Positions 31,143 through 60,261 of a stretch of DNA of 64,000 nt are shown piece by piece. Location of the stretch: IMG/VR virus record IMGVR_UViG_3300045107_000159, positions 1 to 64,000 of that record; one strand, given 5' to 3'. Origin of the DNA: a virus. Every line of letters begins with the position of its first letter. The first letter of the stretch is position 1. The notes below the pieces were generated by a model, which saw only the letters and a program-made list of their open reading frames with translations, did not search any database and was not told where the DNA came from. A program made the translations under genes and the position numbers.

Positions 31143-32540
31143 ATGTTTGGTTTTCTATCGAGTCTCGGCTCAGGCATCAGCAATTTAGGATCTTCCATGG
31201 CGCGCGGAGTCCAAAAATTGGGCGGCGCCGCCAAACGCGTCGGCGACCCGGACGAGACATCGCCGAACCCGATTGAGTCCCCGGCTAACCTGGCGCGGCC
31301 TGACGTCCGGACGCTCGAAGACTCCGTCGCCAACGCCGAAAAGGGCGCGGCGGTCGACTTCGGCGCCGATCGCGGGGCGTTCTCCTCGCCCGGCATCCAG
31401 CCGGACGTGAACCTTCCGCGCTCGCCGGCGCTCTACAACGTCCCCGACCCGCCGCCCGGGCCGACGATGGCCGCGACCAGGTCGCCCTTACTTATCCCGC
31501 CGGCGATGCGCTCTCCCGACATGTCGGCCGCGGCGGTCACCCCGCCTTTCGCCCCCTCGGGCGCGATGGCGCCGGCGGCGGTCGACCGGTCGGAAGTTCC
31601 GATTCCCGCGCTTCCCGGCCAGGCTGGCGGCCCCTCCGCGTACGACCCGGTCAAGGCCGCGCGATATGACTATGTGATGCAGGGCGCGCGCCATGGCGAG
31701 GACGGCAGCCTCCTCACCAAGGACCATGGCGGGGGATTCGACCGCAATTGGAAGAACGTCGCGCAGAATCTCTTGATCGGCGCTTCCAGGGCCGCCGCGG
31801 CTAACCCGCACGACCCTATTGGCGCGGCGATCGGCGGCGCCGGCGCCGGCGCGCTCGGGACGATCATCAACCCCGAGAAAGGGCGCGAATTCACCTTCGA
31901 TTCCGTCCAAGGTCCGCGGATGGAGCGGGAACAGGAAAAGGCGCGCAGGGAACGTCAGCAGGCGGGCGAAGAGGCCTTATCGAGGGCCAAGATTGATCAG
32001 ATCATCACGGAGAACGGCCTGAATCGCGCCAGGACGGCCGCCACCGTCGCCGGCATGAAGGATTCCGACTTGCAGAGGCGCAGGTCGGAGGCGGAGATCG
32101 ATCTCTTCAACGCCCGGGCGGAAGCCGCGCGCACCGGCAAGCCGACTTACAAGGACATCGCGGGTCCCGACGGCAAAATCCAGACCGTCGCGGTCTACGC
32201 AAACGGCGACCAGATCCCGGTCGGCGGCTCCGGAGCGGCCGCGATGCAGCGCGACCGCATTGCGGCGCAGGATAAGCGCGCGGACGACCGAAACGCGGCC
32301 GCGCTCGAGCGGACGAAGGCTCACGAGGCCGGCGCGGACGCCCGTACAGACAAGACGATCGCCGGCGCCAAAGAGCGCGCGGAAATTCAGGAGCGCGGGC
32401 GCGACGCCAGGTCTCAACGCGCGCCCGGCAGACTCACCCGGCCCGGCCTGAGCAATTCCGGTACGTCCTCCGGATCGGGGCTGACGCGGAAGATCGATCC
32501 CAAGCGTTACCCGTCGGGCACGCTTAACTTCGATTATTGA
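31143..32540 (+). CDS. internal virion / ejection protein candidate, 465 aa
   Basis: GAGGG RBS. P/A-rich low-complexity N-terminal half and a charged helical C-terminal half. Lies directly upstream of the giant SLT-containing ORF. Function is inferred from position only. Confidence 0.4.
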   Translation: MFGFLSSLGSGISNLGSSMARGVQKLGGAAKRVGDPDETSPNPIESPANLARPDVRTLEDSVANAEKGAAVDFGADRGAFSSPGIQPDVNLPRSPALYNVPDPPPGPTMAATRSPLLIPPAMRSPDMSAAAVTPPFAPSGAMAPAAVDRSEVPIPALPGQAGGPSAYDPVKAARYDYVMQGARHGEDGSLLTKDHGGGFDRNWKNVAQNLLIGASRAAAANPHDPIGAAIGGAGAGALGTIINPEKGREFTFDSVQGPRMEREQEKARRERQQAGEEALSRAKIDQIITENGLNRARTAATVAGMKDSDLQRRRSEAEIDLFNARAEAARTGKPTYKDIAGPDGKIQTVAVYANGDQIPVGGSGAAAMQRDRIAAQDKRADDRNAAALERTKAHEAGADARTDKTIAGAKERAEIQERGRDARSQRAPGRLTRPGLSNSGTSSGSGLTRKIDPKRYPSGTLNFDY

Positions 32541-32588: not shown

Positions 32589-35500
32589 ATGCCGTTTGAT
32601 GAACTAGACGATCAGGAACAGTCTGGAGGCCAAACTCCGTCCGGAGGCCAGCCCGAACAGCAAGAAATGACCCTCGACCAGTTCGAGGACCATTACGCCA
32701 AGGTGTTCAAGATCCCGAAATACCTGCGCCAGGCGATGAAGGAGCAGGAATCCGGGGCCGACGACACGAAGGCCTTGTCGAAAAAGGGCGCCGTCGGCCG
32801 CTGGCAGGTCATGCCGGACACGGCGGCGAAGTACGGTCTCGACACGAACGACCCGTTCGACAACGCTTACGCGGGGATGCGCTATCTCCGCGAGAAGTAC
32901 GACCAGGTCGACTCCAAAATCACCGAACCCGGCGCGCGCTGGCAGGCGGCGCTCGCCGGATACCACGGCGGCGAGCGGCAGATTAACCACATCAACAAGA
33001 CCGGGGAGATCGCGCCGGGTAACGACGGGAACATCGAGACCGGCAACTACGCCGACAACATCATGCGGCGCTGGCAGCAGCTCAGTTCGGGCGACCATTC
33101 GACCGGCCTCAACAAGGTGGAGATGGGCGCCGGCGACACGATGGACCTCGGCACGGGCAAGATTACGAAGCCCGCGCCGGCTCAGCCCGCGACCAAGCCG
33201 AAAGACGTTCTCGACGGCGTCCCCGTCGACCCGTCGAACCCGTTCGAGTTCCGCGCGCCGCTGGCCAAACTGCCGGCGGAGCAGCCCTCGCGCCTCCCGG
33301 GCGGCCCGATTCGCGCCGACGTCTTCGCCGGCGGGACGCCCCCGCAAAATTTGCAAACCCCTCAGCGGGCGCGGCTGGAGCGCCCGACGAGACAGCTCGA
33401 GCAGCCGAGCCCCTTCGACTTTCGGGGCCCGCTCGCGCAAGTCCCCGAGGGCATGGGCCAGGGGCCGCAACCTGGCGCGACGGTCAAGGTCGACGTCGGC
33501 CAGCCGGCCAACGTCGCGCCGACCAGCCTCCGCGTGATGCGCGAGGACGCGCGAGCCCGCGAGCTCGCCCGGGCGAAAGCCCCGCACGACCATTCCGGCC
33601 CGACCTGGCGCGACCTGCCGCAGGAAACCCGGAACATGCTCGAAAACCCGCAGGCCGCCGCGGCGCTCACCCCGGACGCGCGGGATTACCTCGAATCGCT
33701 GCGGGCCGCGGACGCGCAGGCGCAAGCGGCGTACGAGCGCGATACCGACATCCAAAACGCCCCTTGGTATCCGGAGCAGCTCGCCAACCGCGCGGCGCGT
33801 GGATTCAGCGGCACAATCGACAGCTCCGTTAAAGGTCTCTCGCTTCTTCACCCGGACATCGAGAACCGTCTCCGGCAGAGTTTTATCATGGGCACGACGG
33901 AGGAGGATCAACAGATTCTCCGCCGGCGCTTCCCGGTCGACCCTACCGACGATAGCTATCTGGCGAAAGCGGCGGAGGCCGCGGGTTCGGCCGTCCCGTT
34001 CGCGGCCACGTCCGCCATGGGCGGATTCCTGGGCTTTCCCGAGTTCCTTATCCCGTCCGTGATGGGCGCGGCGTCCAACGCCGGCCAGACCTACGACGAG
34101 GCGATTGCGGCCGGCCAGAATCCGGACCAGGCGAAGCGCGCGGCCGTGATCGGCGCGTTCATCGGCCTGAGTGAAGGGTTCGGCGTCGGGAGCCTCGGCG
34201 CGCCGGCGGAACACGCGGCGACGCACGGCCTTTTGCGCTCCATCGGCGACGAGGCGATGGAAGAGTTCCTGCAGGAAGGCTTTTCGCAGGTGATGAACAA
34301 CATCAACGCGAAGGAGCTCTCCGGCTACGACACGAAGCGCGCCATTACCGAGGGGGTCGCGGAGTCCGCGCTCCTTGGCGGCCTGGTCGGCGGCGGGTTC
34401 GGCGGCGCTCACCACGTCGTCGGCGCCGCCGCCGGCTCCCTCGCCGATCGCGCGGACAGGCAGGCGGGCGCGCGGGCGGTACAGAACGAAGGATTCGCGC
34501 CGCTCAACCTCACGCCGACCACCATGGGGCCGACGCAGCTGACCAGCTTGCGCCAGGCCGCGCAGCCCGAATACCGCAAACGCCTTCAGGAAGCGGCCGC
34601 GCCGGCGCAGGCGCAGACACAGGGCGCCGAAGCCGCGGCGGCCGCCGGGGCGACGCCGGCGGCCGAATCGGCGCCGGCCGCCCCGTTGACCGGACGCGCC
34701 CGCCTCGACGCCGCGGTTCAGCGGCTCCAGTCACTACAACAGCCGAAGAAGGGCGAGAAGCCGACGACGGCGCAAACCCTCGCGGACCTCGAAACCAAGG
34801 GCCAACAGCTCGCCACGTTCGCCATCCAGCGCGCGGACGCAGACCCCGACACCGCCAACCTGGCGTTAAGCCAGTCCATCGGCCACTACCAACGGGCGAT
34901 AAACACCCTCAAGGGCTCGCCCGAATACCAGGCCGAATTGATGTCCATCGCCGGCGGCCAGGCGGCCGAAACGCCGCTGCGCGACAAAATGCTCGAGCTC
35001 GACAAGACGCTCAAAGGCCTCCAGTCATTTTCCGAGCGGGACGCGCGCGCCGAAGCGGACCGAGTGAAGGCGCAGAAGGAAGCCGAGAAAAAGGCGGCGC
35101 AGGACGAAAAAGAGCGCAAGGCGGCCGAAGTGAAGGCGCAGCGCGAGGCCGACGAACGCGCCCGCGTCGATGCGCGCAACAAGAAGGTGGCGGACGCCGA
35201 GCGCAACCGCGCGGAGCAGGAGGCCAAACGGAACGCGGCCGAGGCGCAAAAGACGCTCGACCGCCGGCAGGCCGAAGAGTCGAGGATCCGCGAGCGCGAC
35301 GAAGCCGAACGCGCCAAGGCGGACCAGGCCAGCACGCGCGAGGCCGAGGGCGAGATCAGGCGCATGCGCCTCTTCGACGAGTCGAACGCGGCGGCCGACA
35401 GGGCGGCGGCCGACTCCAGATCCCGCGAGGAGTCCGGCGACTACTCGGGCGCGATCGGCGCGCTCCGGACGCAGCAGGACGCGCTACAGACCGCGCTGCG

Positions 35501-38500
35501 GTACCTTCCGCAGACTCCGGAGGCGGTTAAGACCCGTGCCGCGCACGTCGAGCGAATCCAGGAGATCGCCAACCGGATTCCCGATCTCCGCCGGCGGGCG
35601 GCCGCCGCTCCGCAAAATTTGCGACGGTTCCCGGCCGGCGCCGGCGTCGGGACTGAGAACGGCCCGGAAAGCCGGCTTTTCCGCTCGGTCACGAACCCGG
35701 AGGGCGGCGTACCGCAGACCGAAAGTGGCTATTCGCCGGGGGCCGGTTTCGAGCGCCTGGCCGAGAAGTCGCGCGGGCCGGTCGAAGACCAGACTTCGCT
35801 GCTCACCGCCATTCGGCGTATGGGCGGGATTAGCGACGACGGCGACACGTCGGGCGAACTCCGCCGGATCGGACTGAAGGAAGCCGGTACGACCGGCCTG
35901 GCGCGTCGCGACGGCCATTCCCCGGACACCATGCGCGAAATGCTGGCGTCCGAAGGCTACCTGCCGAAGGATTCGACCGTCAGCGACATGTATGACGCGA
36001 TCGAGGGCGAGCTGCGCGGCCGCGGGTCGAGCCGCGAATCTTCCGAGGAGGACCTCTCGCGCCATTACGAGGAAGAAGCCGAGCGCGAAAAGGCGCTCGG
36101 CGACATCGATCTGCGCCTCCGGACCGGAGAAATCGACCAATTCGACGCCACGCGCGAGCGTAACAAACTGGTCCGCCCGCAATACACGCCGGCGGAAACC
36201 GGTACCGAGCCTATCGAGAGTTACAGCCGTAGCCCTCATCTAGCGGGCGGGACGATTGAGCTCGACGGCGCGACGTACCTTGTCAGAAACGAGCAGGGCG
36301 ACGTCCTGGGCGCCAACGCGAATAAGATGGCGGCCGTTCGTAACGCGGAAGACCGCGCCAGTGGTAGCGGCGACTTCGCGATCAATGAGGAGGGGCGCTC
36401 CGTTTACGCCCCTCAATCTGAAGAGAAAAACGTCACGCCGAGACTCGTCCGGCCGACTGAGCGCGAATCCGTTCCCAAAGCCACGGCCGAAAATATTGAC
36501 GAGCTGCGGCGCAGACGTGATGTATTATCCCGCCTCCGCGCTGACCGGGGCGGGGAGATGTCCGACGACCTCGAAGACGAGTACAAAGAGCTCGGGGCGC
36601 AGATCATCCCCTACGAGGACTCGCAGAGGACGCCGGAGGAGAAGCGCGCGTTAGAGCAGGCGCCCCCCTGGGCTGACACCCGACCGTGGCGGCCGCCGAC
36701 GCGCAAAGAAACGCTCCGCGCGGTCGAAACCGCCGAGCGCGAAGTCGACGAAGAGATCGCCGAGGCCGTCGAAAGCGCTGACCCTGAAGAGGCCGAACTC
36801 CTCGAAAACGCCGCGCAACTTGTTGACGGACTTCTCGGCAGAGTGAACGCGGACGTCGACACCGCGGAACTGCTTGAACTTGCCATAGGAGGCGATGCCG
36901 ATGCTGAAGCGACCCTTACCCGATACGCCGAGCGAAAGCTCAACGCCGGCGCTGACGCCGTTCGAGACCTTATCGAGGCCGGACGATCTGAGCGAGAGCG
37001 AGAGCGAACAGCCGAGCGACCAGACGAGCGACCAGACGAGCGGCGAGACGAACGACCAGGAGCTGAAGAACGCGAAAGCGAGAGTCGCGATGAAACGGGC
37101 GCTCCTGTCGCAGCACCGGAGGAGCGGCCTCAAGAGCCAGGCGCACCGAGCCGCCCGGCGTCCGCGCAGACACTAGACCTTCTTTCCGTCGACCCGGCGA
37201 CCGTGGCGGTCGCCGACTTCGACACCTACCTCGGATCCCTCGAACAACTCAGAAACGATCAGCTGGTCGGCAAGGTGGAGCTCGAAGATTGGGCTAACCG
37301 ACAGCTCCGGGCTAAGCTGAAGCGCGCCAACGAAGTCCGCGTGAAGCTCCGCAAGGAAGGCAAGCTCGGGCCGAAGAACCCACCCCGCCAAGGTAAACAG
37401 AAGCAGCTGAAGAAAGACGAGCTCGGCCGTCGCCTGATGGCGGAGCAAGGCCTTGGCGCTCGCCTCGAAGAAGCCATCGCCGGGTACGGGCGCGGTCTCG
37501 TTTCCATTTCCGATCTGCGCTCGCAATTCCCGGACGTCGGCAAAGAAGCCTTCGACCGCGAAATCGGCAAACTTCACGACCAGCAGCGAGTCGCGCTGCA
37601 TGAGCATGACTGGCCAGCCGGCATGACCGAGGACGCGCGCAACGCCCTCGTCGAAAGGCCGGCCCGGGATGCGCGGACGGGCCAGCCCGGCAAGGCTTAT
37701 TACAACGGCGTCACGCTGCGTGAAGGCGTTAAGCCTGGCGAGGAGGTAAAGCCGAAGGAAGGCCCGACGCTCTACCACGGCTCGCACGAGGCGCTCACCG
37801 CGCTCGGCGTCCGGACGCCGAAAACCTTCGACAGCTTCGGCACCTGGTTTACGAGCGATCCGGAGCTCGCCGGCCATTACGGCGCGAACGTGTACGAGTC
37901 CAAACTGCCGGCGGATTTGAACCTGATCGAGTACGAGGGTAACGGCCAGACCGGAGACCCGACCGCCGACATCAACCGGAAAATCCTCGCCAGCCCCGAT
38001 GTGGCCAGGCGGAGCGGCTTTGAGAAAGAGGCCGCCATCCTCGAAAAGACGCAACCGGACACGCCCCGCCTGAACGAGCTCACGCGCAAGTTGGAACATT
38101 CCGGCCAGCCGCTGACGCCGGCGGAGCAGAAAGAGCTCCGGCAATTGCGGGAAGCCGCGGACGCCTCGCGGACACTCGGCAAAAGCCAGCGTTACATGCA
38201 GACGTTGCGCCAACAGACTGAGGCCGCCGGCTATGACGGCATTGTCTGGCGGAACGTGATGTACGACGTCTCCGACAGGCCGCACGACGTTTACGTGATC
38301 TTCAACAAAGAAGATTTACCGGTCACGAAGCGCCAGGCCGCCGCGCCGAAGGCGAAGCCCGTCGAAGCGGCGAAGCCGGCCGCCGCCGCGGAGATGACGC
38401 CGGAGGAGATGATCGCCGAGGACGAGCGGCGCGAAGTCGCGCGCGTGAAGCGCATCGACGACTTTATCAACGACCATAACGAAACGCCCTTCCAGGCGCC

Positions 38501-41500: not shown

Positions 41501-44500
41501 GACGCCGATCTTCGTGACGCAGAAGCCCGCGCTCTACGCCGACATGATTCGCGACCTGTCGGACATCGGTATGCCGAACGCGCGCGTCCTCATCACCAAC
41601 GGCGGCGAGTCGATCCCGCTCAACGACGCCGGCACGGAATGGATGCAGGCGGTTAAGGACGCCAAGGACAAGGACCAAAAGGCGCCGCCGAAACCCTCCG
41701 ACGCGAAAGTCTTCCGCGCGAAACCCGACCACGATCAAATGCTCGAGCGCTTGGCGCAGTCCGGCAAACTCGCCGGCTATGACGTTGTCTTCACGACCTA
41801 CGACCAGATGAACCCGCAGGGCGGCAAGTTCGACCGACCGCGACATGGGGCCGTGTCTAGGTTGGGTGACGGTGGCGTAGTAATTCTGGACGAGTCCCAC
41901 ACCGCCGGCGGGACGGAGCCGGGCGCGCGGAGCAATCCGAACCAGCAGACGCGAAGTAAGTTTTTCCGCCAGCTTGTCAATAAGGCGGGGTCGGTTTTCT
42001 ACAGCTCGGCGACGTATGCCAAGCGTCCCGACGTGATGGATTTATATTCGAAAACCGACCTCGGCCAACTCGGCGGCAACAAGACGAGCCTGGCCGACCT
42101 CTTCCACCGCGGCGGCGTCGCGCTCCAGCAGGTCGTGGCGTCGAAACTGGCCGAGGCCGGCCAATATCTCCGGCGCGAGCGCACCTTCGACGGCATCCGC
42201 TACGACCCGCAGGTCGTCAAGGTCGAGAAGGAGCAGGCCGAACACGTTAGCCGCGCCATGGCGGTTATCGCCGCTTTCGACGAGGCGAAGAAGGGCGCGA
42301 TCAAGGCTCTCGACAAAGAGGCCAAGCGCGAGGGCAAGTCGCTGAGCGGCGACGGCTCGACCGGATCGGCGGGAGCCGATTCCACGAACTTTACGTCGTT
42401 GATGCACAACGTCGTCGACCAGATGCTGCTCGGACTGAAGGCGGAGCCGGCCGCGCAGCAGGCCATCGAGGCGATTAAGCGCGGCGAAAAGCCCGTCTTG
42501 ACGGTCTCGAACACGATGGAGTCCTTCTTGAAAGAGGCGGGGCTCTCGCCGGGCGACCCCGTCGATCTGTCCTTCCGGGACATCCTTCTGCGATACCTGA
42601 ATCGAAGCCGCGACGTTACCATTCGGGACCGCGACGGTAAACGATCGCGGCGGCCGCTGAGCGACGACGAACTCGCCCGGGGCGGCGCGCTCAGCGCCTT
42701 CGAGGCGGCCGAAGACTTCATCCGCGACGCCGATTTCGCGGACATTCCAATCTCGCCGATCGACTACGTCCGCCAAAAAATTCAGGCGGCCGGCTATTCG
42801 GTGGACGAGATCACCGGCCGCGGGACGCAGGTCGATTACACCGGCAAAATGCCGATCTTGAAAGCCAGGTCGTCGGCCGATACGAAGGTCGCCGGACGCC
42901 GGCGCGTCATTCAGCAGTTCAATAACGGCAAGCTCGACGCGCTGATTCTTAACCAGGCCGGATCCACCGGTATCAGCCTGCACGCCTCCGAAAAGGTTGA
43001 GGACAAGAACGTGCGGCACATGATCATCTGGCAGCCCGAGAAGAACATTGACACTCACATGCAGATGCTCGGGCGCGTCAACAGGACCGGCCAGGTCGTC
43101 GTCCCTCGCTACACGCAGATGATCGCGGACGTCCCCGCCGAGAAGCGGCCGGCCGCCGTGCTTCTGAAGAAAATGGCTTCGCTCAACGCCAACACGACCG
43201 CCTCCCGCAAGTCGGCCGTCCAGACCGAAGGCGTTACGGACTTTATGAACGAGCTCGGCGACGAAGTGATCGCGCGGTTGATGGCGACCGAGGGCGACAT
43301 CCACCGCAAGCTCGGCAGTCCGCTCGATTACGACGGCGATTCGATGGCTTCGGCCGAAGCGGCGCGCCGCGTGACCGGCCGCATTCCCCTCCTGCCGATC
43401 GCGGAGCAGGAGGCGCTATACGACCGCATCGAGCAGGAATACAAGGATTATCTCGAACAGCGCGACGCGATGGGCGACAATCCGCTCGAAGCGAAGACGA
43501 TGGACTTTCGCGCGGAAACCCTCAAAAAAGATTTGCTCGTCGAGGGCACGCCGGGCAGTCCGTTCAGCGAGCCGGCGTACCTGGAGCGCGTTAAAATCCA
43601 GGTTCCCGTCAAACCGTACACGCAGGCCGAAGTAATGGGGATGCTGCGCGATAACCTCGGCCTCGGCGAGTCGGCCGAGCTCGGCGAACTGCAGCAGGCA
43701 GGGAAGCGCCAGGTCAAGGAACTCCGCGACCAGGTGCGGGCCCGCGTCGACGATTTCAAGGACAACATGGCGTCGGAGTACGACAGCGACGCCACCCTAC
43801 AGGCGCAGCGGCAGAAGGCCGACCAGACGTTCTTGCGGTGGAACGCGATCGCGAATCTCGTCACCCCGGGGTCGACCGTCACGGTCGAGACGCCGTCCGG
43901 GAGCGTGTCCGGCGTAGTTATCAGCCTGCAGGAGCGCGGGAAGCCGAAGAACCCGGCCGCCTTCGGCGCCTGGCAGGCGCGCCTTGCCGTCCTCGACGGC
44001 CGCGAGCTCCGCTTTAGCTTCAACGACTTGGTCGACAAGGGCGGCCAGCCGCGCGTGAAGTTCACCGACGAAGTTCAACGCTTCAACCAGGAGACGGGGC
44101 TTTTCGAGTATCGGCCGATGCTCCCCGAGTTCGACGATTCGCAGGGGCTGAAGAAGCAGACGCGTTACATGGTGACCGGCAACATCGTTTCCGGTTATTC
44201 GAAGATCCCCAAGGGGCAAATCCTCAACTACACGGACGCCGACGGCGTGGTGCGCCAGGGCGTGCTTATGCCGGCGAATTTCGACGCGGACAAGGCGATG
44301 CAGGAAATGCCTGTGGAGTTCAAATCCGCGGACCACGTCCTCCAATTCATCGACAAGTCTGGCGCCGTGACGCTCTCCGACCCGCAACCGGCTTTCAGAA
44401 TTTCGCGCGGCAAGAATGGCAAGGTTTTGATGGCGGCCTCCGGGCAAAAGGCGAACGCCGGAAAAATCATCCTCAGTCCGGCCTTGCGAGACATGGGCAT

Positions 44501-47500
44501 CGAGTTTTCCGGCAACCGCACGCGCATGACGGCGCAAATGGACCAGGAGACCGCCCGCCGCGCGATTTGGGGCATCCTCTCGGGCGAGGTAACCGGGGAG
44601 CCTGAAACGCTTCAGGCCGAAAACCTGCGCGACGTGGCGAAAGGGATCGTCAGCAGCGGCTCCGGGCCGGCGCGAGAGCGGTCGCGGGATTGGCAGACGA
44701 AATCGGTCGCGATGGCCGAATCGCTGGCCGACATCGCCGAAAATACTCGAATCCGCGTTCCGAAGTCTCCGTCCCGCGCCAACATGATCTATGGCAATGA
44801 GCAGGCTCACGCCTGGGTCGATAAGGCTGATACGCGCATTCATGGCGTACGGGAGCCCTTCAACGGGATGAACCTGTCGAAGCAGGAGGCCAAGCAGATG
44901 GCGGAGGAAATCCGCCGCGAGAAGTACTGGTGGAGAGACGAGGCCCCGGACGTCAAACGCCGGGCCGACGCCGCGATCGACAAGCTGGCCGACGCCTTCG
45001 ACAACGCCGCGGACAAGTTCGACCGCGTGATCTACGTTCGCGCGCAGGGGCGCGGGTTCCGCAATCTGCGCGGCACTGTATATCACGAGCTCACGCACAA
45101 CGCGGAGCGGACGTACCGCTCGGTCAAGGGCTGGTTCGCGGCGCAACCGGTCTTTGAGAAGATCAAGGCGGCGCTCGAAGACAAGGGTTACAAGCCCCAC
45201 GAGATGATTTCCGAGTCGGTGGCGCACATCCTCGGTGGACAGCGCCGCCAGTTAGGCTTATCGTTGAAGGAGGCGGTGGATTACCTCGACAGTTATTTTG
45301 CAAATATTTCATTCGCGAACGGTCGCGAATCCGTCAACTCGTTTAATCCGATGAACGCCGCGCCGGAAATGCGCCAGGCGCTGCGCGAAGCAAAGGAGAA
45401 ACATGGGCCAAGAGAACCAGTTAGAATTGATGAAGAGGCGATTCAGCGAGCGATACGGCGACGCTCCGGAGGCGACGGAGAATCCGGAGAGCGGGACCGA
45501 CCTTTACGACGACCTCAGCCAGGCGAAGGAGGCTTGGCAGACGCGGGGCAAAGACGGCTTGAAAGACCTACTGGAGTCGCGAGAGAACGAGTCGCGGCCG
45601 ACGAAGACGACGAGCTGACGCCGCACGAGAAGCTTGTCGAGGATTTCGGGAAAGACCGCGATTACATTTCCGATTTCTTTTACGACGACCTTCCCGGCAA
45701 ATTCGACCCGAAAAAACTGATCACCGACCAGTCGCGCGCCATTTGGGACGCTTACCATAAGCGCCTGAGCGACTTCGTCGAGGACTTCTCAGGCCAGCCC
45801 GCCAAAATGGCCGCTCAAATTAAAGCCGCGCAGGCCGAACTCAGCCAGGGCGAGAGCGAGTACCAACGGCTTAATGACCGTTATTACGCACTCCCCGAGG
45901 ATTCCGCCGAAGAGGCCGAAGTCATGGAGAAGATGGAGGCCCTCGAAGCCTCGAACGCGCAGCTCGAAGAAAAAATCGACTACCTCCAAGACGAGCATGG
46001 CTATCTGAAGAACGATGTCCGGGAGTTTAAGCGTCTGGTCGAGCGCAACACCCGTTATGATGAGGCGGACATCGAAAGCGACCTCGGGCGCGAGGCCAAC
46101 CACAAAATCTTCCAGATCGAAAACGAGCGCGACGACGCAATGCGGAAGGCCTTGTCCGATTTACAGAATCCGCCGGCGTCGAAGCCGGATTTCGTCGTCG
46201 AGGCCGAGCAGCGTCTGCGTGAGGCGGCCGCCGGCCAGCTGGCGGGGTCCGGGACGAGGCAGCTCGCCGACCTGGCGATCGTCACTGGCTGGCGCGTCTA
46301 CGAGAAAGGCATGTCCTTCGCGCAGTGGGCGCGCGAGGTCGTCGCAAACCATGGCGACAAGATTCGCCCGTACCTGCAAGGGGCTTGGCGCAAGGTCCGG
46401 AGCGCGAAGGCCGATCAGAAAGTCGGCCGGTCCATCGAACGTCTCTCGGATGAGTATGACTCTCTTACGGACAGGCAGGGCGATCTTCGCAAGGCGATGT
46501 TTGGCCACGCCGACGCCGTCGAAGCGGCGACCAATGAGCGGTACTCGATCGACGAAGACGTCCGCCGGCTGAACGAGCAGCTTAAAAACTCGGTCGCGAA
46601 CACCAGGGCGGCGCAGGCGGCTATCCGCCGTTTGGCCATCGACTCCGAAAGCCCGGAGATCACGAAAGAGAAGGCGCGGCTCGATCGGCAGATCGTCGAA
46701 GGCCGCAAGAATATCGAGCGCCTAAAAGCCCGCCTCGACCGTATCCGCGACGAACGCGACCACATAGGCGACGAGCTGGAGACCTTCGAGGCATGGGACC
46801 AGCCGCGGCTCGACCCCAAAATGGAGGATTGGGCGAAACGCGTCTCAGAAATCCGGAAAGAGCGGCACGCGGAGCAGGCGAAGAAACGCCCCCCGGGGAC
46901 TTACATGGGCGCCGGTTTCGGTTCGTTGCAGGCGCTTTTCGACAGCAAGCCGGCGCCGAAAACGACGCCGCTGCGCGAAGTCGTGAACAAACTCGGTCAC
47001 GAGCCGCTAGGCGTCGACCCGGCGCAGGTCGCGAAGGCCACTCAGGAGCAGTTCATTGAAGCGCTCTCGAAGGGCAAGAACGGCACGTTGCCCGGCGCGC
47101 GCGCGCAGTATTGGGCCGAGAAGCTCGGCGCGAAGAAGACCGCCGACCGCCTGGCCGAGAAACAGGCCAAATTCATCGAAGACGGCGTCGACCTAGTCGC
47201 CAAGATCGCGGACGCGACCGAGCGCATGGCGAAAGCGCAGCGGGGAAGCGCCGAGTACGAAAAGGCCAAATCCGACCAGGACCGCGCCCGGATCAAGCTG
47301 GCGAATCAGTTCTCGAAGGCGGGCGAGTACACCCACCCGTTCGACTACGCCGCGAAAGCGTACAAGGCCTCACTGCTGAGCGCGCTGCACATCCCCTATT
47401 TCAACATCGTGGCGCAGGTCGCGCAGTTCCCCTTCCATGAGGCTCAAAAGGCGGCGGACTGGCTCGTCCCTCAATCCGTGTTCAAAAAGTGGGGCATCCC

Positions 47501-49481
47501 GTACGAAAAACAGCTCTCGGCCGACGTCCGCACCTGGGGCCCGGCGATGTGGCGCGAGCTCGGCGCGCTGAAGAAGGGCGCGGGATCGATCTTCGGCGAC
47601 GTCGCCGACATGATGTATTACGGGACCACCACCCTCGGACAGAATGTCGAGATGGCGGGCGAGGTTCACAAGAAACGCATGGCGGCTAAGCAAGGCGAGC
47701 GCGAGAAGATTACCGGCGGCACGGACAAGTACGAGCTCGGGAATCGGCCGAAAATGATCCCCGGGGTCGACCAGGCGCTGATGACGGTCGGCCGCGTTCA
47801 GGGCGCCGCCGACGTTCCGTTCTTTAACGTGATGTTCGCGACGGCGCTGGCGGCCGAGGCCGACGCCACGGCGAAGAAGATCGCCCGCGAGAATCCCGAA
47901 CTCGAGTTCACGGCCGAAGAGGTGAAGGCGCTCGCGCGCGACCTGGCGCATGAGCCGTCGCCGGCGATGATCGTTCACGCCGCGGACGAGGCCAACCGGT
48001 TCAAATTGGATTATCCGACCTGGGGTTACGAGCAATTGCAAAAGTTGCGCAACTCGGAGCGCATCAAACAGGGCGGCCGCCACGTCGAGGCCGCTTGGAA
48101 GGCCGCGCTCGATTTCGTTGTTCCGTTCTCGAAAATCCCCTTGGCCGCGGTGGATATGGCGCTTTTCCGTTACAGCCCTGTCGGGTTCGGCCGCGTCGGC
48201 TCCCGCCTGGTGAAGGCGGGCAGGGAATTGAACGAGGCGAAACGGACGGCGGAGCGCCAGGGCCGCAAGCTCGGCGCGACCGAAGGCCGGCAATCGGAGG
48301 CCTTCGCGCGCGACACGGCCGAACTCTACCGCCAGGCGATCGTCGGCTCGATCTCCTGGGCGGCGCTCGGCCTCCTGGGCGCGCTCGGATACGCCTCATT
48401 CACCGGTGGCGACGACGACAAGGACAGGAAGGGCGCCGCGGCGAAAGAGGCCCTCGGCGAGAAGTACACGCCGGAAATGATCGTGGGGGATTACGCCGTC
48501 GACGTGGGCAAGCTCGGGCCGGTCGGCCAGGCCGCCGCGCTCGGCGGCCGCATCGCCGCGGCCTCCCGCCGGCGGTACGAGGAGAAGCGCGAAGATTACG
48601 AGCCGGAATCGAAGCGGCTCGACAGGACGTTCGGCGCGATCGGCAAGGGCGCGTTCTTGGACAACCCCCTCGGCCAGGGCGCGAAGGACGTTATCGACGC
48701 CTTCGATTCCGGCAGCCCGGGCGCCGGCGCCGCGAAGTTCCTCGGCGGTAAGGCCGGCGCGATCGTCCCCGGGGCGCTGCGCGACGTCGCCAAAATGACC
48801 ACACCAACGAAGGTCATGCCGGACGACAATTCCGGCCTCGGTAGGATCCGCGGCGATCTCCGCTCCGCCGTGCCGTCCCTCCGGGCGCAAATGCAACCGC
48901 GCCTCGACGCGCTCGGCCGGCCGGTCGACCAGCCGAATCCGTTCGCGTTCGTCCGTTCGCTGCGCCACAACGACCAGGTCGAAGACACTCTCCGCGTCGG
49001 CTCCGGACTTCCGAAGCCCGCGCGCGACCAGGGCGAGCCCGCGGCAGAGTACAACCGGCGGCTGCAGCGCAACGCCGGCAACCTGAACGACACAATGCGG
49101 AGCCTGCGGCGCGATCCGGAGATGCAGACGGCCTCGCCGCTCGCGCGCCGGGCGATCTATGAGCAGGCCTTCAACTCGAAACAGATGGAGCGCGCCGGCA
49201 AGCTTTCGGAAGAGTCCGTCCAGGCGGAGCGCCACATCGAGGGGTTGAAGGCCGACGCCTTCGCGGCGCTGGCCGGCTCCGCCGAGTACCAGGCGCTCAA
49301 CGAGAAGGATAAGGCGGCCGCCCGTAAGCTCATTACAGAGGAGCTGAAGCGCTACCGCGCCCGGGTGGGCAGCGTCGACAGGGCAGGGAGGCCGCGCGCC
49401 GAGAAGCCGGCCGAGATCCCTGATTGGACGCCGGGCAACTTGGCTAGGGCGGCTTTGCAAAATTTGCGGGCCGGCCGGTGA
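32589..49481 (+). CDS. giant polyvalent virion protein (5,630 aa): SLT, ART-like, 2H phosphoesterase, N6-MTase, Sno/SNF2-like helicase, HExxH peptidase
   Basis: Uninterrupted 16,893-nt frame with the catalytic signatures listed as separate domain features. The MTase-plus-helicase core resembles phage P1 DarB and plasmid methylase-helicase fusions. See the findings on two internal stretches whose coding signature is out of frame. Confidence 0.7.
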   Translation: MPFDELDDQEQSGGQTPSGGQPEQQEMTLDQFEDHYAKVFKIPKYLRQAMKEQESGADDTKALSKKGAVGRWQVMPDTAAKYGLDTNDPFDNAYAGMRYLREKYDQVDSKITEPGARWQAALAGYHGGERQINHINKTGEIAPGNDGNIETGNYADNIMRRWQQLSSGDHSTGLNKVEMGAGDTMDLGTGKITKPAPAQPATKPKDVLDGVPVDPSNPFEFRAPLAKLPAEQPSRLPGGPIRADVFAGGTPPQNLQTPQRARLERPTRQLEQPSPFDFRGPLAQVPEGMGQGPQPGATVKVDVGQPANVAPTSLRVMREDARARELARAKAPHDHSGPTWRDLPQETRNMLENPQAAAALTPDARDYLESLRAADAQAQAAYERDTDIQNAPWYPEQLANRAARGFSGTIDSSVKGLSLLHPDIENRLRQSFIMGTTEEDQQILRRRFPVDPTDDSYLAKAAEAAGSAVPFAATSAMGGFLGFPEFLIPSVMGAASNAGQTYDEAIAAGQNPDQAKRAAVIGAFIGLSEGFGVGSLGAPAEHAATHGLLRSIGDEAMEEFLQEGFSQVMNNINAKELSGYDTKRAITEGVAESALLGGLVGGGFGGAHHVVGAAAGSLADRADRQAGARAVQNEGFAPLNLTPTTMGPTQLTSLRQAAQPEYRKRLQEAAAPAQAQTQGAEAAAAAGATPAAESAPAAPLTGRARLDAAVQRLQSLQQPKKGEKPTTAQTLADLETKGQQLATFAIQRADADPDTANLALSQSIGHYQRAINTLKGSPEYQAELMSIAGGQAAETPLRDKMLELDKTLKGLQSFSERDARAEADRVKAQKEAEKKAAQDEKERKAAEVKAQREADERARVDARNKKVADAERNRAEQEAKRNAAEAQKTLDRRQAEESRIRERDEAERAKADQASTREAEGEIRRMRLFDESNAAADRAAADSRSREESGDYSGAIGALRTQQDALQTALRYLPQTPEAVKTRAAHVERIQEIANRIPDLRRRAAAAPQNLRRFPAGAGVGTENGPESRLFRSVTNPEGGVPQTESGYSPGAGFERLAEKSRGPVEDQTSLLTAIRRMGGISDDGDTSGELRRIGLKEAGTTGLARRDGHSPDTMREMLASEGYLPKDSTVSDMYDAIEGELRGRGSSRESSEEDLSRHYEEEAEREKALGDIDLRLRTGEIDQFDATRERNKLVRPQYTPAETGTEPIESYSRSPHLAGGTIELDGATYLVRNEQGDVLGANANKMAAVRNAEDRASGSGDFAINEEGRSVYAPQSEEKNVTPRLVRPTERESVPKATAENIDELRRRRDVLSRLRADRGGEMSDDLEDEYKELGAQIIPYEDSQRTPEEKRALEQAPPWADTRPWRPPTRKETLRAVETAEREVDEEIAEAVESADPEEAELLENAAQLVDGLLGRVNADVDTAELLELAIGGDADAEATLTRYAERKLNAGADAVRDLIEAGRSERERERTAERPDERPDERRDERPGAEERESESRDETGAPVAAPEERPQEPGAPSRPASAQTLDLLSVDPATVAVADFDTYLGSLEQLRNDQLVGKVELEDWANRQLRAKLKRANEVRVKLRKEGKLGPKNPPRQGKQKQLKKDELGRRLMAEQGLGARLEEAIAGYGRGLVSISDLRSQFPDVGKEAFDREIGKLHDQQRVALHEHDWPAGMTEDARNALVERPARDARTGQPGKAYYNGVTLREGVKPGEEVKPKEGPTLYHGSHEALTALGVRTPKTFDSFGTWFTSDPELAGHYGANVYESKLPADLNLIEYEGNGQTGDPTADINRKILASPDVARRSGFEKEAAILEKTQPDTPRLNELTRKLEHSGQPLTPAEQKELRQLREAADASRTLGKSQRYMQTLRQQTEAAGYDGIVWRNVMYDVSDRPHDVYVIFNKEDLPVTKRQAAAPKAKPVEAAKPAAAAEMTPEEMIAEDERREVARVKRIDDFINDHNETPFQAPLRDGKSLIVHRSVKPEYKDKWQVTWLDKDGEPFRDTAFKDFRETLDELTRFYGLDLDQASVAPAAQAQPQASAPAEFGAENKVFTRDRADKARDLLKKKFAEMSRQTNAGVPIDPEMIQAGVDLVGYYVEGGARTFADLTKRIIGDLGESARPYVKSWYLAVRNYPGFDKSGMESEADLDRLESGEEQPTLTHRDPELDRKPILAETKDGRKIVANPANESGVSVVKDRSEDMGGYSSSSTQVDLPKDIADQVVAFGKKIPDSALTGDGREKRPHVTILYGLHGFDPKFVQAALEGERPVKVTFGKVSLFENDERDVVKVDVTSPDLHRLYAKVLKSQPNTQTFPEYKPHATIAYVRKGQGAKYVGDNFLEGKSITLDKVVFSGRDGEETEIQLNGKPAEQLDETQAAEPVEAPAEQPAARDYGTPAEPNIPDLAAAFSEKFAKGEGFRTTAEARAYAAELLGGEVGAGSPAAKQIDEAVELGAVRAGRDLAAKGLSSAETYAGMLKILDAQPTLNERTSTSIANQAFSTPVPLAFAAQQLAGVDEKTTVYEPTAGNGALVMAAKPENITANELNPERAANLRESIDAAEVSNADATQFDPGKKFDVVIANPPFGPVRTENGSKRFQTPFGETTEIDHAIAFKALESMKDDGSAVLIVGGISPLAKSEEARSDAYNTSAKRRFYFYLYQNYNVVDHFTAAGSMYKKQGAGWPVDVIVIKGRGKSGLELPAVEVPRIISNYDELGNLIENPRQPAARPASNRVLESGERGARSDQGGGRHADQPRGLRRPSVSTAGGEAQAGGKSGASPGGRPRTTPKLVREPNLFEDADRVDSGKPADTGETQLPAREPAQGLPDETRSGPAAAAGGLRTDQSAPVGGRTDVGARRTPVVAETESHSPYKPLSKANSLNVAVPRNMSGATEKALSDFEERHGSPDEYLAEKLGYDVKDIPKYFGAEQVDAVALAVSNIEAGKGFVIGDQTGIGKGRTNAAIIRYAIKNGKTPIFVTQKPALYADMIRDLSDIGMPNARVLITNGGESIPLNDAGTEWMQAVKDAKDKDQKAPPKPSDAKVFRAKPDHDQMLERLAQSGKLAGYDVVFTTYDQMNPQGGKFDRPRHGAVSRLGDGGVVILDESHTAGGTEPGARSNPNQQTRSKFFRQLVNKAGSVFYSSATYAKRPDVMDLYSKTDLGQLGGNKTSLADLFHRGGVALQQVVASKLAEAGQYLRRERTFDGIRYDPQVVKVEKEQAEHVSRAMAVIAAFDEAKKGAIKALDKEAKREGKSLSGDGSTGSAGADSTNFTSLMHNVVDQMLLGLKAEPAAQQAIEAIKRGEKPVLTVSNTMESFLKEAGLSPGDPVDLSFRDILLRYLNRSRDVTIRDRDGKRSRRPLSDDELARGGALSAFEAAEDFIRDADFADIPISPIDYVRQKIQAAGYSVDEITGRGTQVDYTGKMPILKARSSADTKVAGRRRVIQQFNNGKLDALILNQAGSTGISLHASEKVEDKNVRHMIIWQPEKNIDTHMQMLGRVNRTGQVVVPRYTQMIADVPAEKRPAAVLLKKMASLNANTTASRKSAVQTEGVTDFMNELGDEVIARLMATEGDIHRKLGSPLDYDGDSMASAEAARRVTGRIPLLPIAEQEALYDRIEQEYKDYLEQRDAMGDNPLEAKTMDFRAETLKKDLLVEGTPGSPFSEPAYLERVKIQVPVKPYTQAEVMGMLRDNLGLGESAELGELQQAGKRQVKELRDQVRARVDDFKDNMASEYDSDATLQAQRQKADQTFLRWNAIANLVTPGSTVTVETPSGSVSGVVISLQERGKPKNPAAFGAWQARLAVLDGRELRFSFNDLVDKGGQPRVKFTDEVQRFNQETGLFEYRPMLPEFDDSQGLKKQTRYMVTGNIVSGYSKIPKGQILNYTDADGVVRQGVLMPANFDADKAMQEMPVEFKSADHVLQFIDKSGAVTLSDPQPAFRISRGKNGKVLMAASGQKANAGKIILSPALRDMGIEFSGNRTRMTAQMDQETARRAIWGILSGEVTGEPETLQAENLRDVAKGIVSSGSGPARERSRDWQTKSVAMAESLADIAENTRIRVPKSPSRANMIYGNEQAHAWVDKADTRIHGVREPFNGMNLSKQEAKQMAEEIRREKYWWRDEAPDVKRRADAAIDKLADAFDNAADKFDRVIYVRAQGRGFRNLRGTVYHELTHNAERTYRSVKGWFAAQPVFEKIKAALEDKGYKPHEMISESVAHILGGQRRQLGLSLKEAVDYLDSYFANISFANGRESVNSFNPMNAAPEMRQALREAKEKHGPREPVRIDEEAIQRAIRRRSGGDGESGERDRPLRRPQPGEGGLADAGQRRLERPTGVARERVAADEDDELTPHEKLVEDFGKDRDYISDFFYDDLPGKFDPKKLITDQSRAIWDAYHKRLSDFVEDFSGQPAKMAAQIKAAQAELSQGESEYQRLNDRYYALPEDSAEEAEVMEKMEALEASNAQLEEKIDYLQDEHGYLKNDVREFKRLVERNTRYDEADIESDLGREANHKIFQIENERDDAMRKALSDLQNPPASKPDFVVEAEQRLREAAAGQLAGSGTRQLADLAIVTGWRVYEKGMSFAQWAREVVANHGDKIRPYLQGAWRKVRSAKADQKVGRSIERLSDEYDSLTDRQGDLRKAMFGHADAVEAATNERYSIDEDVRRLNEQLKNSVANTRAAQAAIRRLAIDSESPEITKEKARLDRQIVEGRKNIERLKARLDRIRDERDHIGDELETFEAWDQPRLDPKMEDWAKRVSEIRKERHAEQAKKRPPGTYMGAGFGSLQALFDSKPAPKTTPLREVVNKLGHEPLGVDPAQVAKATQEQFIEALSKGKNGTLPGARAQYWAEKLGAKKTADRLAEKQAKFIEDGVDLVAKIADATERMAKAQRGSAEYEKAKSDQDRARIKLANQFSKAGEYTHPFDYAAKAYKASLLSALHIPYFNIVAQVAQFPFHEAQKAADWLVPQSVFKKWGIPYEKQLSADVRTWGPAMWRELGALKKGAGSIFGDVADMMYYGTTTLGQNVEMAGEVHKKRMAAKQGEREKITGGTDKYELGNRPKMIPGVDQALMTVGRVQGAADVPFFNVMFATALAAEADATAKKIARENPELEFTAEEVKALARDLAHEPSPAMIVHAADEANRFKLDYPTWGYEQLQKLRNSERIKQGGRHVEAAWKAALDFVVPFSKIPLAAVDMALFRYSPVGFGRVGSRLVKAGRELNEAKRTAERQGRKLGATEGRQSEAFARDTAELYRQAIVGSISWAALGLLGALGYASFTGGDDDKDRKGAAAKEALGEKYTPEMIVGDYAVDVGKLGPVGQAAALGGRIAAASRRRYEEKREDYEPESKRLDRTFGAIGKGAFLDNPLGQGAKDVIDAFDSGSPGAGAAKFLGGKAGAIVPGALRDVAKMTTPTKVMPDDNSGLGRIRGDLRSAVPSLRAQMQPRLDALGRPVDQPNPFAFVRSLRHNDQVEDTLRVGSGLPKPARDQGEPAAEYNRRLQRNAGNLNDTMRSLRRDPEMQTASPLARRAIYEQAFNSKQMERAGKLSEESVQAERHIEGLKADAFAALAGSAEYQALNEKDKAAARKLITEELKRYRARVGSVDRAGRPRAEKPAEIPDWTPGNLARAALQNLRAGR
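32691..33083 (+). other. lytic transglycosylase (SLT) domain of giant ORF
   Basis: KEQESGADDTKALSKKGAVGRWQVMPDTAAKYGL ... AYAGMRYL ... LAGYHGG matches the ES ... GLMQ ... AYNAG pattern of the SLT family. Confidence 0.75.
33344..33354 (+). repeat. dispersed dyad 11-mer GCAAAATTTGC, copy 4
   Basis: Exact match. Read as PQNLQT. Confidence 0.9.
35612..35622 (+). repeat. dispersed dyad 11-mer GCAAAATTTGC, copy 5
   Basis: Exact match. Read as PQNLRR. Confidence 0.9.
37761..38320 (+). other. ADP-ribosyltransferase-like (ART-PolyVal-type) domain, tentative
   Basis: GPTLYHGS (YHGS at 37773-37784) ... FGTWFTSDPELAGHYG ... VYESKL ... GYDGIVWRNV ... DVYVIF. This is an H...[FY]-x-[ST]...E-like arrangement seen in ART domains of polyvalent proteins. 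My recognition is weak. Confidence 0.35.
39205..39690 (+). other. 2H phosphoesterase (LigT / 2-prime-5-prime RNA ligase-like) domain
   Basis: Two H-x-T motifs in hydrophobic context at the typical ~75-aa spacing: RPHVTILYG (HVT at 39324-39332) and KPHATIAYV (HAT at 39549-39557). Confidence 0.65.
39990..40710 (+). other. N6-adenine DNA methyltransferase domain
   Basis: SAM-binding motif I VYEPTAGNGAL (~40149-40178) and catalytic motif IV NPPF (40332-40343, in DVVIANPPFG). Confidence 0.8.
40720..41172 (+). CDS. embedded +1-frame coding-like segment (150-aa ORF) inside giant ORF
   Basis: Hand-counted GC3 is ~77% in this frame versus ~41% in the giant-ORF frame over the same nucleotides. The translated peptide is globular-looking (W, Y, C and amphipathic helices), whereas the giant frame here reads R/G/P/A-rich. 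The +1 frame is open from 40654. No good SD precedes ATG 40720. Confidence 0.4.
   Translation: MTNSAILSRTPASQPQGRPQIVYWSPGNAELGVIKAAVDMPISHADYVDLLCQRLEERLKREENPEQVLADAREQLRSSFGSLTYLKTPTEWILENPQIQERLNSLRVSPPKGFRMKPGPDQQRLREAYEQTSLLQWVDELTWGLDEHLS
41330..43230 (+). other. Sno (strawberry-notch)/SNF2-like helicase domain
   Basis: Motif I GDQTGIGKGRT (41430-41462), DExH box VILDESH (DESH at 41889-41900), C-terminal lobe LILNQAGSTGISLHA, and motif VI QMLGRVNRTGQ. Confidence 0.8.
45084..45098 (+). other. HExxH zinc-metallopeptidase motif of giant ORF
   Basis: RGTVYHELTHNAE (HELTH), with a downstream E/H (ESVAHILGG). Matches metallopeptidase modules of polyvalent proteins. Confidence 0.55.
45403..45618 (+). 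CDS. embedded +1-frame coding-like segment (71-aa ORF) inside giant ORF
   Basis: AAGGAG (45393-45398) lies 4 nt upstream of the ATG. Hand-counted GC3 is ~81% in this frame versus ~38% in the giant-ORF frame. The peptide is acidic and helical-looking, while the giant frame reads R/G/E-rich. Confidence 0.4.
   Translation: MGQENQLELMKRRFSERYGDAPEATENPESGTDLYDDLSQAKEAWQTRGKDGLKDLLESRENESRPTKTTS
49457..49467 (+). repeat. dispersed dyad 11-mer GCAAAATTTGC, copy 6
   Basis: Exact match 12 nt before the giant-ORF stop. Read as LQNLRA. Confidence 0.9.
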
Positions 49482-49502: not shown

Positions 49503-49553
49503 TGGACCACTTTTGGGAATAGTCCATGGACTTGTCCAAAAAGTGGTCCATTT
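49503..49553 (+). terminator. long nested palindrome / terminator-like hairpin after giant ORF
   Basis: TGGACCACTTTTGG (49503-49516) pairs with CCAAAAAGTGGTCCA (49536-49550), giving 14 bp with one bulge. It encloses the 12-bp palindrome AGTCCATGGACT (49521-49532) and is followed by TTTGATT. Begins 22 nt after the stop. Confidence 0.5.
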
Positions 49554-49767: not shown

Positions 49768-49786
49768 GCTTACTTATCGACCGCGC

Positions 49787-51414: not shown

Positions 51415-51426
51415 TCGATTCTCCTC

Positions 51427-54505: not shown

Positions 54506-54513
54506 CTCGGCGG

Positions 54514-56951: not shown

Positions 56952-56954
56952 CGT

Positions 56955-57413: not shown

Positions 57414-57443
57414 CCGACTGAGGGTATCCTTCTGTTGATGGCG

Positions 57444-60254: not shown

Positions 60255-60261
60255 GGGGCGC

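Follow-up and report, generated by a model that had tools for sequence, protein, structure and literature searches.

The virus record IMGVR_UViG_3300045107_000159 of IMG/VR (positions 1 to 64,000, analysed here as a whole and called the window below) contains an open reading frame (ORF) of 5,630 codons at 32589-49481 on the + strand. The locus raises two questions: is such a frame one real gene, and what would a phage do with its product? We found that the giant ORF is real and coding throughout, and that its product belongs to the polyvalent proteins as understood by Iyer, Burroughs, Anand, de Souza and Aravind (2017, J Bacteriol; PMC5512222), who described a class in which many unrelated domains share one polypeptide and for which delivery together with DNA is predicted. 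The giant protein is therefore of a kind already described. Our reading, to which we give a probability of roughly 0.7, is that a few copies of it are packed in the virion and expelled through the tail with the DNA or ahead of it.

According to the ORF listing and the translation, the frame starts with ATG and has its sole stop at its end; the product would have a mass of 617 kDa and an isoelectric point of 5.8. The probability that a stop-free run of this length arises by chance at the local GC content is ~1e-64. In the other frames across the region the longest ORF has 603 amino acids (aa). Antisense ORFs of up to this length overlap the giant ORF, for example at 32604-34415 (-), and were not treated as genes; such long antisense frames are accounted for by a GC content of ~65% with GC-rich third positions. 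The GC content of third codon positions (GC3) of the giant ORF lies at 0.77-0.87 in 15 out of 18 blocks of 300 codons, reaching at least 0.8 in most blocks, similar to that of neighbouring genes, and dips to 0.61-0.67 in codon blocks 1201-1500, 2701-3000 and 4201-4500, each of which holds a low-complexity linker.

If ordinary genes had been fused through assembly or sequencing errors, these three dips at linker blocks could in principle mask the frame errors. We consider such an artefact extremely improbable. In two relatives from independent assemblies (labelled L002 and L083 here), collinear single ORFs cross the same junctions, the collinearity running from about residue 400 of the window protein to its C-terminus and spanning all three dips. 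More than 90 further relatives have giant ORFs, as do two cultured phages (gp3 of Bacteroides phage BS-TP4 and an ORF of Ruegeria phage 45A6), and the chance figure given above also argues against a fusion. The terminal position of the only stop, that figure and the collinear relatives thus bear out the single uninterrupted frame proposed in an earlier interpretation made from the letters of the window (the sequence-only reading).

The same reading had assigned the ORF a quarter of the phage genome and considered its size unusual. The quarter is correct as a share of the 64-kb window but not of the genome, whose size the window does not establish: it contains no terminal repeats that would define the genome ends, and related contigs are 45-70 kb long. 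Together with a 2,684-aa ORF described below, the giant ORF takes up ~39% of the window. The claim about size did not hold up, since gp3 of BS-TP4 (PQ571277) has 5,391 aa in a 64,274-bp temperate genome, and another relative (P0003) has 7,768 aa, is larger than the window protein and occupies ~35% of a 66,071-bp NCBI contig. The giant protein is large and not exceptional within its lineage.

Domains of the giant protein

Pfam was searched at thresholds of E 0.01 for the whole protein and E 1 for its segments. The predicted modules are given below with coordinates in the window, strand, and residues of the giant protein.

32697-32996, + strand, aa 37-136: SLT lytic transglycosylase (Pfam PF01464, PHROG, motifs)
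33774-34958, + strand, aa 396-790: N1, a Gly/Ala-rich putative scaffold module (PHROG 2206, family hidden Markov model, HMM)
35706-36098, + strand, aa 1040-1170: N2, a putative scaffold module conserved in 21 related giant proteins
37770-38312, + strand, aa 1728-1908: ART-PolyVal-like module (Pfam PF18760, sub-threshold)
38742-39008, + strand, aa 2052-2140: small helical domain, found upstream of the methyltransferase in 22 relatives, no family assignment
39309-39596, + strand, aa 2241-2336: 2H phosphoesterase (PF13563, PHROG 755, two H-x-T motifs)
39786-40508, + strand, aa 2400-2640: LPD36-like helical lead-in (GAGS motif) and gamma-class N6-adenine methyltransferase (MTase)
40731-41195, + strand, aa 2715-2869: low-complexity linker from MTase to helicase, within the block of lowest GC3 (0.61)
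41412-43286, + strand, aa 2942-3566: Strawberry-notch-type ATPase of superfamily 2 (SF2) (PF13872, PF13871, motifs)
43287-44693, + strand, aa 3567-4035: post-helicase extension of ~470 residues
44733-45413, + strand, aa 4049-4275: [H/E]-E-x-x-H domain (conserved profile, confident model)
45576-46838, + strand, aa 4330-4750: coiled-coil or helical spacer, absent from L002
46926-49469, + strand, aa 4780-5627: C-terminal anchor of ~850 residues, all-alpha

Low-complexity linker between the mapped domains amounts to ~930 residues, 17% of the chain. All motifs quoted in the sequence-only reading were found in the giant ORF in the order given there, from QESG (53-56) to HELTH (4166-4170), and, of the families it had named, SLT, 2H phosphoesterase and the Strawberry-notch (Sno) helicase scored above Pfam thresholds. 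The first of these reached 45.8 bits with PF01464 against a gathering threshold (GA) of 21.3 (E 5e-12). It has the catalytic E-S at aa 54-55 as well as GRWQVMP at 70-76 and AGYHGG at 123-128, and the region matches PHROG families labelled 'lytic tail protein' and 'endolysin'. Profile and catalytic Glu-Ser motif together identify it as a predicted SLT (GH23) lytic transglycosylase, as had been proposed.

N1 matches PHROG 2206, 'virion RNA polymerase', over profile positions 298-596 (E 1e-9) and contains a transmembrane (TM)-like segment by hydropathy (aa 518-536, 34140-34196). A family HMM was built from the 36 giant proteins in which N1 occurs. This HMM aligns to residues 281-508 of N4 gp50 with 18.5 bits, while the N4 N-terminal domain, shuffled 200 times with its composition preserved, yields at most 11.6 bits. 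The common stretch includes the pattern E-E-G-x-Q ... N ... G-V ... G-x-x-x-G. The agreement of two independent profiles suggests that N1 and a part of the N-terminal (injection) domain of the N4 virion RNA polymerase are homologues. N2 matched no known family.

The enzymes in the middle of the chain are supported to different degrees. In the ART-like module the LYHGS motif picked out earlier is in place at 1728-1732; its His and the Asp of GYDGI can be placed, and the Tyr of the H-Y-D triad is not assignable. The module bears an insert of ~100 aa that is also present in its homologue in P0003. Identity with ART-PolyVal is probable but not established, its Pfam score being below the cut-off (see below). 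The small helical domain that follows has a second, diverged copy at aa 4538-4604 (46200-46400), and both copies match one and the same segment of BS-TP4 gp3.

The 2H domain scored 37.6 bits with PF13563 (2_5_RNA_ligase2; GA 27) and has both H-x-T motifs, HVT at 2246-2248 and HAT at 2321-2323, which upholds its prediction as a 2H phosphoesterase. The Acb1 model PF23474 gave 28.4 bits (GA 27) with the isolated segment and 23.9 bits within the long query.

Polyvalent MTase-helicase dyads have been described as an EcoKI/TaqI-like MTase with an N-terminal TP, NPP(Y/F) and a helical lead-in, followed by an SF2 helicase (PMC5512222). As read from its sequence, the giant protein appears to have each of these parts. 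The MTase proper (~aa 2490-2640) carries TP at 2501-2502, motif I VYEPTAGNGAL at 2521-2531 and motif IV NPPF at 2582-2585. It is preceded by a helical lead-in (aa 2400-2490) whose GAGS fits the G-x-G-[GAS] described for LPD36, and followed by the helicase at 2942-3566. PHROG 3820 matches the MTase with E 2e-12. These motifs, the PHROG match and the homology with P1 DarB given below support an N6-adenine MTase; the earlier assignment stands on them and not on Pfam, where the models fall below their cut-offs. The helicase scored far above GA with both PF13872 AAA_34 (79.8 bits, GA 27) and PF13871 Helicase_C_4 (81.2 bits, GA 30.5). Its motifs are intact: GDQTGIGKGRT at 2948-2958 with Walker A GKGRT, DESH at 3101-3104 and motif VI QMLGRVNRTGQ at 3492-3502. 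We conclude that it is, as proposed, a putative Strawberry-notch-like SF2 ATPase. Of the 97 proteins of the first comparison set, 96 have the post-helicase extension together with the MTase-Sno core.

The [H/E]ExxH domain, which contains HELTH at aa 4166-4170, gave 16 profile matches in 15 protein entries, corresponding to 13 distinct copies, two of them within one protein. When these 13 homologous copies were aligned with that of the window protein, E4167, H4170, a Tyr, an Ala and E4209 (~40 residues downstream) proved invariant, and 7 of the 14 had Glu in place of the first His of the motif (R-E-E-R-F-H). The AlphaFold2 model made from the alignment has a predicted local distance difference test score (pLDDT) of 91.4 and a predicted template modelling score of 0.71. 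Its predicted order is three beta strands, the motif helix and a helix with the invariant Glu, in agreement with the minimal zincin core of polyvalent-protein peptidases. No Pfam or NCBIfam family matched the domain, and its profile gave chance-level matches only among PDB sequences. A metal site is plausible on this model, and the domain is possibly a minimal zincin-like peptidase, which the model does not confirm. We do not call it a peptidase, because Foldseek searches of PDB and BFVD gave no match. Of the HExxH peptidase suggested earlier, what persists is a conserved, confidently folded domain with HELTH, but half of the aligned copies have Glu as first residue and no zincin fold was matched.

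Every full-length giant protein matched along the whole domain (2,411-7,768 aa) ends in the anchor. In a HMMER search of 1.84 billion cluster representatives 58 matched it, 33 of them at E <= 1e-10. Among 50,697 phage records it had no match; Pfam, PHROG and NCBIfam offered no family for it, and PDB sequences matched it only at chance level. AlphaFold2 predicts an all-alpha structure with moderate confidence (pLDDT 69.7). The 'hydrophobic C-terminal region' of the sequence-only reading turned out to be one TM-like segment within the anchor (aa 5250-5268, 48336-48392).

Conserved frame and exchangeable enzymes

Related contigs of phages or prophages that carry giant ORFs of 2,385-7,768 aa number more than 100. 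When IMG/VR was scanned with the helicase segment, it gave 80 viral contigs, mostly 40-70 kb long (44-54% identity); the corresponding scan of GTDB gave 15 loci, all in metagenome-assembled genomes. Each of these loci has a single long ORF around the match, of ~2,300-5,140 aa. The closest relative, L083 (CAYXVZ010000009.1, 132,614 bp), has a helicase 75% identical to that of the window protein in an ORF of 4,881 aa. Its contig is binned as 'uncultured Heliobacteriaceae', yet the locus has 59% GC, and both binning and host assignment look doubtful. The giant ORF of L002 has 4,829 aa. Both L002 and L083 are collinear with the window protein but without ART and 2H, and L002 has a ~460-aa insertion at the position of the MTase-helicase linker. 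Other searches gave little: megablast of the giant ORF against the 50,697 phage records found no match, an exact 44-mer taken from it was found neither in IMG/VR nor in GTDB genomes, three large segments used as single-sequence queries against PDB sequences matched nothing, and word-indexed searches with the whole protein returned one match or none each, the candidate list being saturated by coiled-coil words.

A matrix of module presence and absence was compiled from iterated HMMs. Full-length anchor-bearing proteins nearly always also have N1 (aa ~430-700), N2 (~1040-1170) and the [H/E]ExxH domain, the latter nearly always shortly upstream of the anchor. The enzymes are distributed otherwise. 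Among the anchor family, the MTase-helicase core was found only in the window protein, L002, L083/P0060 and P0009, as well as in two short or truncated sequences (P0002 and L091). The 2H domain was found only in the window protein, P0003, P0004 and P0019, and ART only in the window protein and P0003, a sub-threshold Pfam ART match in P0001 not being recovered by the ART family profile built here. SLT was found in the window protein, P0001, P0003 and P0015. P0001 keeps SLT, N1, N2 and the [H/E]ExxH domain and has no MTase-helicase; seven proteins (P0003, P0004, P0005, P0006, P0010, P0015 and P0017) have N1, N2, [H/E]ExxH and anchor without it. P0010 (4,339 aa) has no Pfam match at all, and the 2H domain is the sole Pfam match of P0004.

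As judged from this matrix, a constant frame (N1, N2, [H/E]ExxH domain and anchor) with exchangeable cargo (ART, 2H and MTase-helicase) is the pattern of the family. This separation was worked out here and was not found in the searchable literature. Three of the conserved modules, namely N2, the [H/E]ExxH domain and the anchor, have no family assignment.

As a separate observation, P0003, most of which is unannotated, has no MTase-helicase but combines SLT, N1, N2, ART, 2H and the anchor with a pair of [H/E]ExxH domains.

The lengths of the relatives bear on one alternative, that the giant protein is a structural protein inside the tail, of the tape-measure or tail-needle type, whose main job is assembly and envelope penetration and whose enzymes are accessory. 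Lytic domains, coiled coils and hydrophobic, Gly-rich segments are common in tape-measure proteins, none of the other genes of the window was recognised as a tape measure, and the putative tail ruler Sit of P1 has an SLT that is weakly matched by the SLT profile built here. A range of 2,385-7,768 aa among homologues is incompatible with a length ruler, and we rejected the tape-measure role because of this three-fold variation. The giant gene is also placed after the fibre genes, its cargo would target DNA, nucleotides and proteins, and its low-complexity linkers, at 17% of the chain, do not form a continuous coiled coil. A tail-internal structural role in general seems to us very unlikely.

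The distribution of the core bears on another alternative. The MTase-Sno core occurs in ~99 giant proteins, mostly with other flanks (about a quarter have N1), and is in this respect independent of the scaffold. This would be compatible with a cytoplasmic protein, expressed late or in lysogeny and never packaged, that methylates progeny or prophage DNA and counters defences inside the producer, its SLT aiding lysis. The temperate nature of the phage, with its integrase and replication initiator, speaks for such a protein, as does the indirect nature of the case for packaging. An N-terminal SLT followed by an N4-injection-like module is hard to explain in this way, and the giant gene closes a structural operon. 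Moreover, N- and C-terminal modules persist while enzymes are exchanged, as one would expect of a delivery vehicle more than of an enzyme complex. We regard a purely cytoplasmic role as unlikely.

Proposed packaging and delivery, and comparison with known systems

The reading that we prefer, a packaged and ejected polyvalent protein, places the giant protein in a class with defined features. Polyvalent proteins combine at least two unrelated activities in one polypeptide, as here, and those of phages are located among late virion genes (PMC5512222); the giant ORF is phage-encoded beside such genes, with a terminase-like gene, a beta-helix fibre and an integrase in the window. Every enzymatic module of the giant protein is on the list of Iyer et al., the Strawberry-notch variant of the dyad included. 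The components listed for the class include 2H phosphoesterase and a peptidoglycan hydrolase, both with counterparts here, as well as ART-PolyVal and a zincin-like module, for which the giant protein has candidates; the Strawberry-notch helicase is noted for the class only 'in a few instances' (PMC5512222). Unlike the listed modules, the anchor, N2 and the [H/E]ExxH domain match no Pfam family at the thresholds used. The unrelated activities in one chain, the late-operon position, and the profile and motif matches together support the earlier assignment to polyvalent proteins with an MTase-helicase core.

DarB of phage P1, a component of the virion head that protects DNA in cis (PMC5512222), had been proposed as the model for this core. 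DarB has 2,255 aa and guards against type I restriction. Part of the proposal is supported: as in DarB, an N6-adenine MTase precedes an SF2 helicase, and the two MTases are homologous (aa 2499-2629 versus DarB 91-224, 27% identity, E 2e-6). The helicase, however, is of the Strawberry-notch type; its best E against that of DarB is a marginal 0.0016-0.16, and the two are not detectably of the same subfamily. SLT, N1, 2H, ART and anchor are all absent from DarB, and P1/DarB was not among the tblastn matches of the MTase-helicase core. PHROG 10089, labelled 'DarB-like', matches aa 1910-2438, outside the MTase-helicase. Orthology with DarB was rejected, the DarB family being defined by both domains and the homology being limited to the MTase.

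In the virion RNA polymerase of phage N4 (383 kDa), a flexible N-terminal domain is implicated in membrane association and injection, encapsidation requires a helical C-terminal domain, and the loose links between domains have been proposed to permit passage through a tail channel of 30-35 A (PMC13492108, PMC13434306). The giant protein resembles this packaged and ejected protein (gp50, 3,500 aa) in being a giant chain of loosely linked domains with an N-terminal module, cargo enzymes in the middle and a helical C-terminus. Unlike gp50, it has no RNA polymerase domain (Pfam, PHROG), and the window phage is temperate. Membership in the N4-type virion RNA polymerases was rejected, as only a segment of the N-terminal domain is held in common. 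The anchor was likewise rejected as a homologue of the N4 C-terminal domain, with no similarity signal between them; the likeness at the C-terminus is an analogy only, because the two domains are not detectably homologous.

Other likenesses are narrower. T7 gp16 also has an N-terminal SLT on a large protein that would need to cross the envelope, a likeness at the level of the SLT fold family. T7 gp16 is not known to carry cytoplasmic enzymes. T4 Acb1, a 2H phosphodiesterase (PF23474) directed against cyclic oligonucleotide-based antiphage signalling systems, shares the 2H fold with two H-x-T/S motifs; Acb1 is a small early protein, whereas the 2H domain here is embedded in a giant one. The MTase-Sno-post-helicase core also occurs in BS-TP4 gp3, with 30% identity along ~1,480 aa, and the paper describing BS-TP4 says nothing of gp3 (PMC12694917). 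Ruegeria phage 45A6 (KT820175) has a 3,912-aa ORF in a 53-kb genome, with N1 and an MTase segment in common; this ORF follows tail-fibre genes and has a 473-aa gene directly before it. Both proteins are without the anchor, have a different set of cargo and are annotated as hypothetical.

Several points weigh against packaging and delivery as read here. Packaging, ejection and every biochemical target are inferred. The similarity between N1 and N4, which gives indirect support to delivery into the recipient cell, is weak and compositionally biased, albeit found by two independent profiles. The roles of the anchor and of the [H/E]ExxH domain are argued solely from position and conservation: Foldseek of the anchor model against PDB gave a meaningless best E of 0.09, that of the [H/E]ExxH model gave best E values of 0.3 in PDB and 0.75 in BFVD, the [H/E]ExxH domain has no detectable similarity to N4 gp50 or P1 DdrB, and the anchor has none to P1 DdrB. 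Only two TM-like segments were found in the whole protein. Among the enzymes, the ART-like module reaches 17.2 bits (whole query) to 24.7 bits (segment) with PF18760 against a GA of 31.2, the Pfam models of the MTase (Eco57I and N6_Mtase) remain below GA, and the generic 2H model outscores the borderline Acb1 model (37.6 versus 28.4 bits). Finally, the majority of the structural genes nearby match nothing in PHROG or Pfam and thus give no indication of the morphotype.

On the reading that we prefer, one 617-kDa chain would be made late in infection, with folded modules separated by linkers like beads on a string. Its N-terminal part (SLT in this protein, N1 and N2), the [H/E]ExxH domain and the helical anchor would form a delivery scaffold, and the ART-like module, the 2H domain and the N6-adenine MTase fused to a Strawberry-notch-type translocase would be the cargo between them. 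At infection, the SLT would cut peptidoglycan, the Gly-rich N1 would associate with the membrane and the string of domains would thread into the cell. There the MTase-translocase may track along the entering DNA and, in the manner of P1 DarB, protect it from restriction by methylation in cis, while the 2H domain may destroy cyclic or 2'-5' nucleotide signals or heal RNA ends and the ART-like module may modify host proteins. The [H/E]ExxH domain may then cleave the chain at its linkers.

A more specific version, which we offer tentatively and hold to be rather doubtful, is that the family represents an undescribed delivery platform of temperate phages. An N4-injection-like head, the [H/E]ExxH domain and the anchor would be its fixed parts, and anti-defence enzymes would be exchanged as cassettes; in this phage it would deliver a ready-made Acb1-like nuclease and a DNA-tracking MTase before any phage gene is expressed. 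If this were true, nucleotide-signalling immunity and restriction would be neutralised as soon as infection starts.

The sequence-based prediction of polyvalent proteins dates from 2017, and few of them have been studied experimentally. The protein described here would unite three candidate counter-defence activities in one chain: DNA methylation linked to a translocase, a 2H domain acting on immune nucleotide signals, and a possible ADP-ribosyltransferase. The division into scaffold and cargo provides a testable design, with parts that would load the virion and parts that would act on the host. Should the scaffold idea be right, the N4 model of threading through the tail would extend to temperate phages and anti-defence cargo, and the scaffold would be a natural chassis for enzyme delivery into bacteria. 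Should it be wrong, the protein would still be a well-annotated example of its class and a source of three unannotated conserved domains for family databases.

Neighbourhood of the giant gene in the window

The features around the giant ORF are as follows.

2746-4833, + strand: terminase-like gene that opens the + strand block
21800-29854, + strand: ORF of 2,684 aa with right-handed beta-helix/NosD repeats and a tail-fibre C-terminus
31143-32540, + strand: 465-aa gene matching no known family, directly 5' of the giant ORF
32589-49481, + strand: giant ORF, last gene of a long late operon, which closes the + strand block
49503-49550: near-perfect palindrome of 48 nucleotides (nt), 24-nt arms, 88% complementary, no spacer
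49726-49770: GC-rich hairpin with 21-nt arms and A5/T5 flanks, between the giant ORF and a convergent gene at 49787-50941 (-)
55737-56951, - strand: tyrosine integrase
60494-61474, + strand: transposase-like gene
62305-63507, + strand: lambda-O-like replication initiator

Since both an integrase and a lambda-O-like replication initiator are present, the phage is taken to be temperate; the window is a segment of a temperate phage or prophage. Scans of the whole window with Rfam and for tRNA genes gave nothing. The beta-helix gene is followed by a gene for a ConA-like lectin protein, the 465-aa gene and the giant ORF, all on the + strand. The 465-aa gene is kept immediately upstream of the giant ORF in L001, L002 and L083, and matches nothing in Pfam, PHROG or NCBIfam. 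Its product is a possible partner or chaperone of the giant protein. No detectable homology was found between it and the 473-aa gene of Ruegeria phage 45A6.

The 2,684-aa ORF contains a tandem repeat of 2 x 300 nt at 27243-27842 (81% identical) and a 100-nt repeat at 26714 and 28118 (77%). The 48-nt palindrome begins 22 nt past the stop of the giant ORF and may serve as a binding site for a protein or form a hairpin in RNA. The hairpin at 49726-49770, which a consensus terminator scanner missed, is likely a bidirectional terminator that ends the late operon against the convergent gene. Across 50000-64000 of the window, the GC content drops from 0.60-0.70 to 0.56-0.59.

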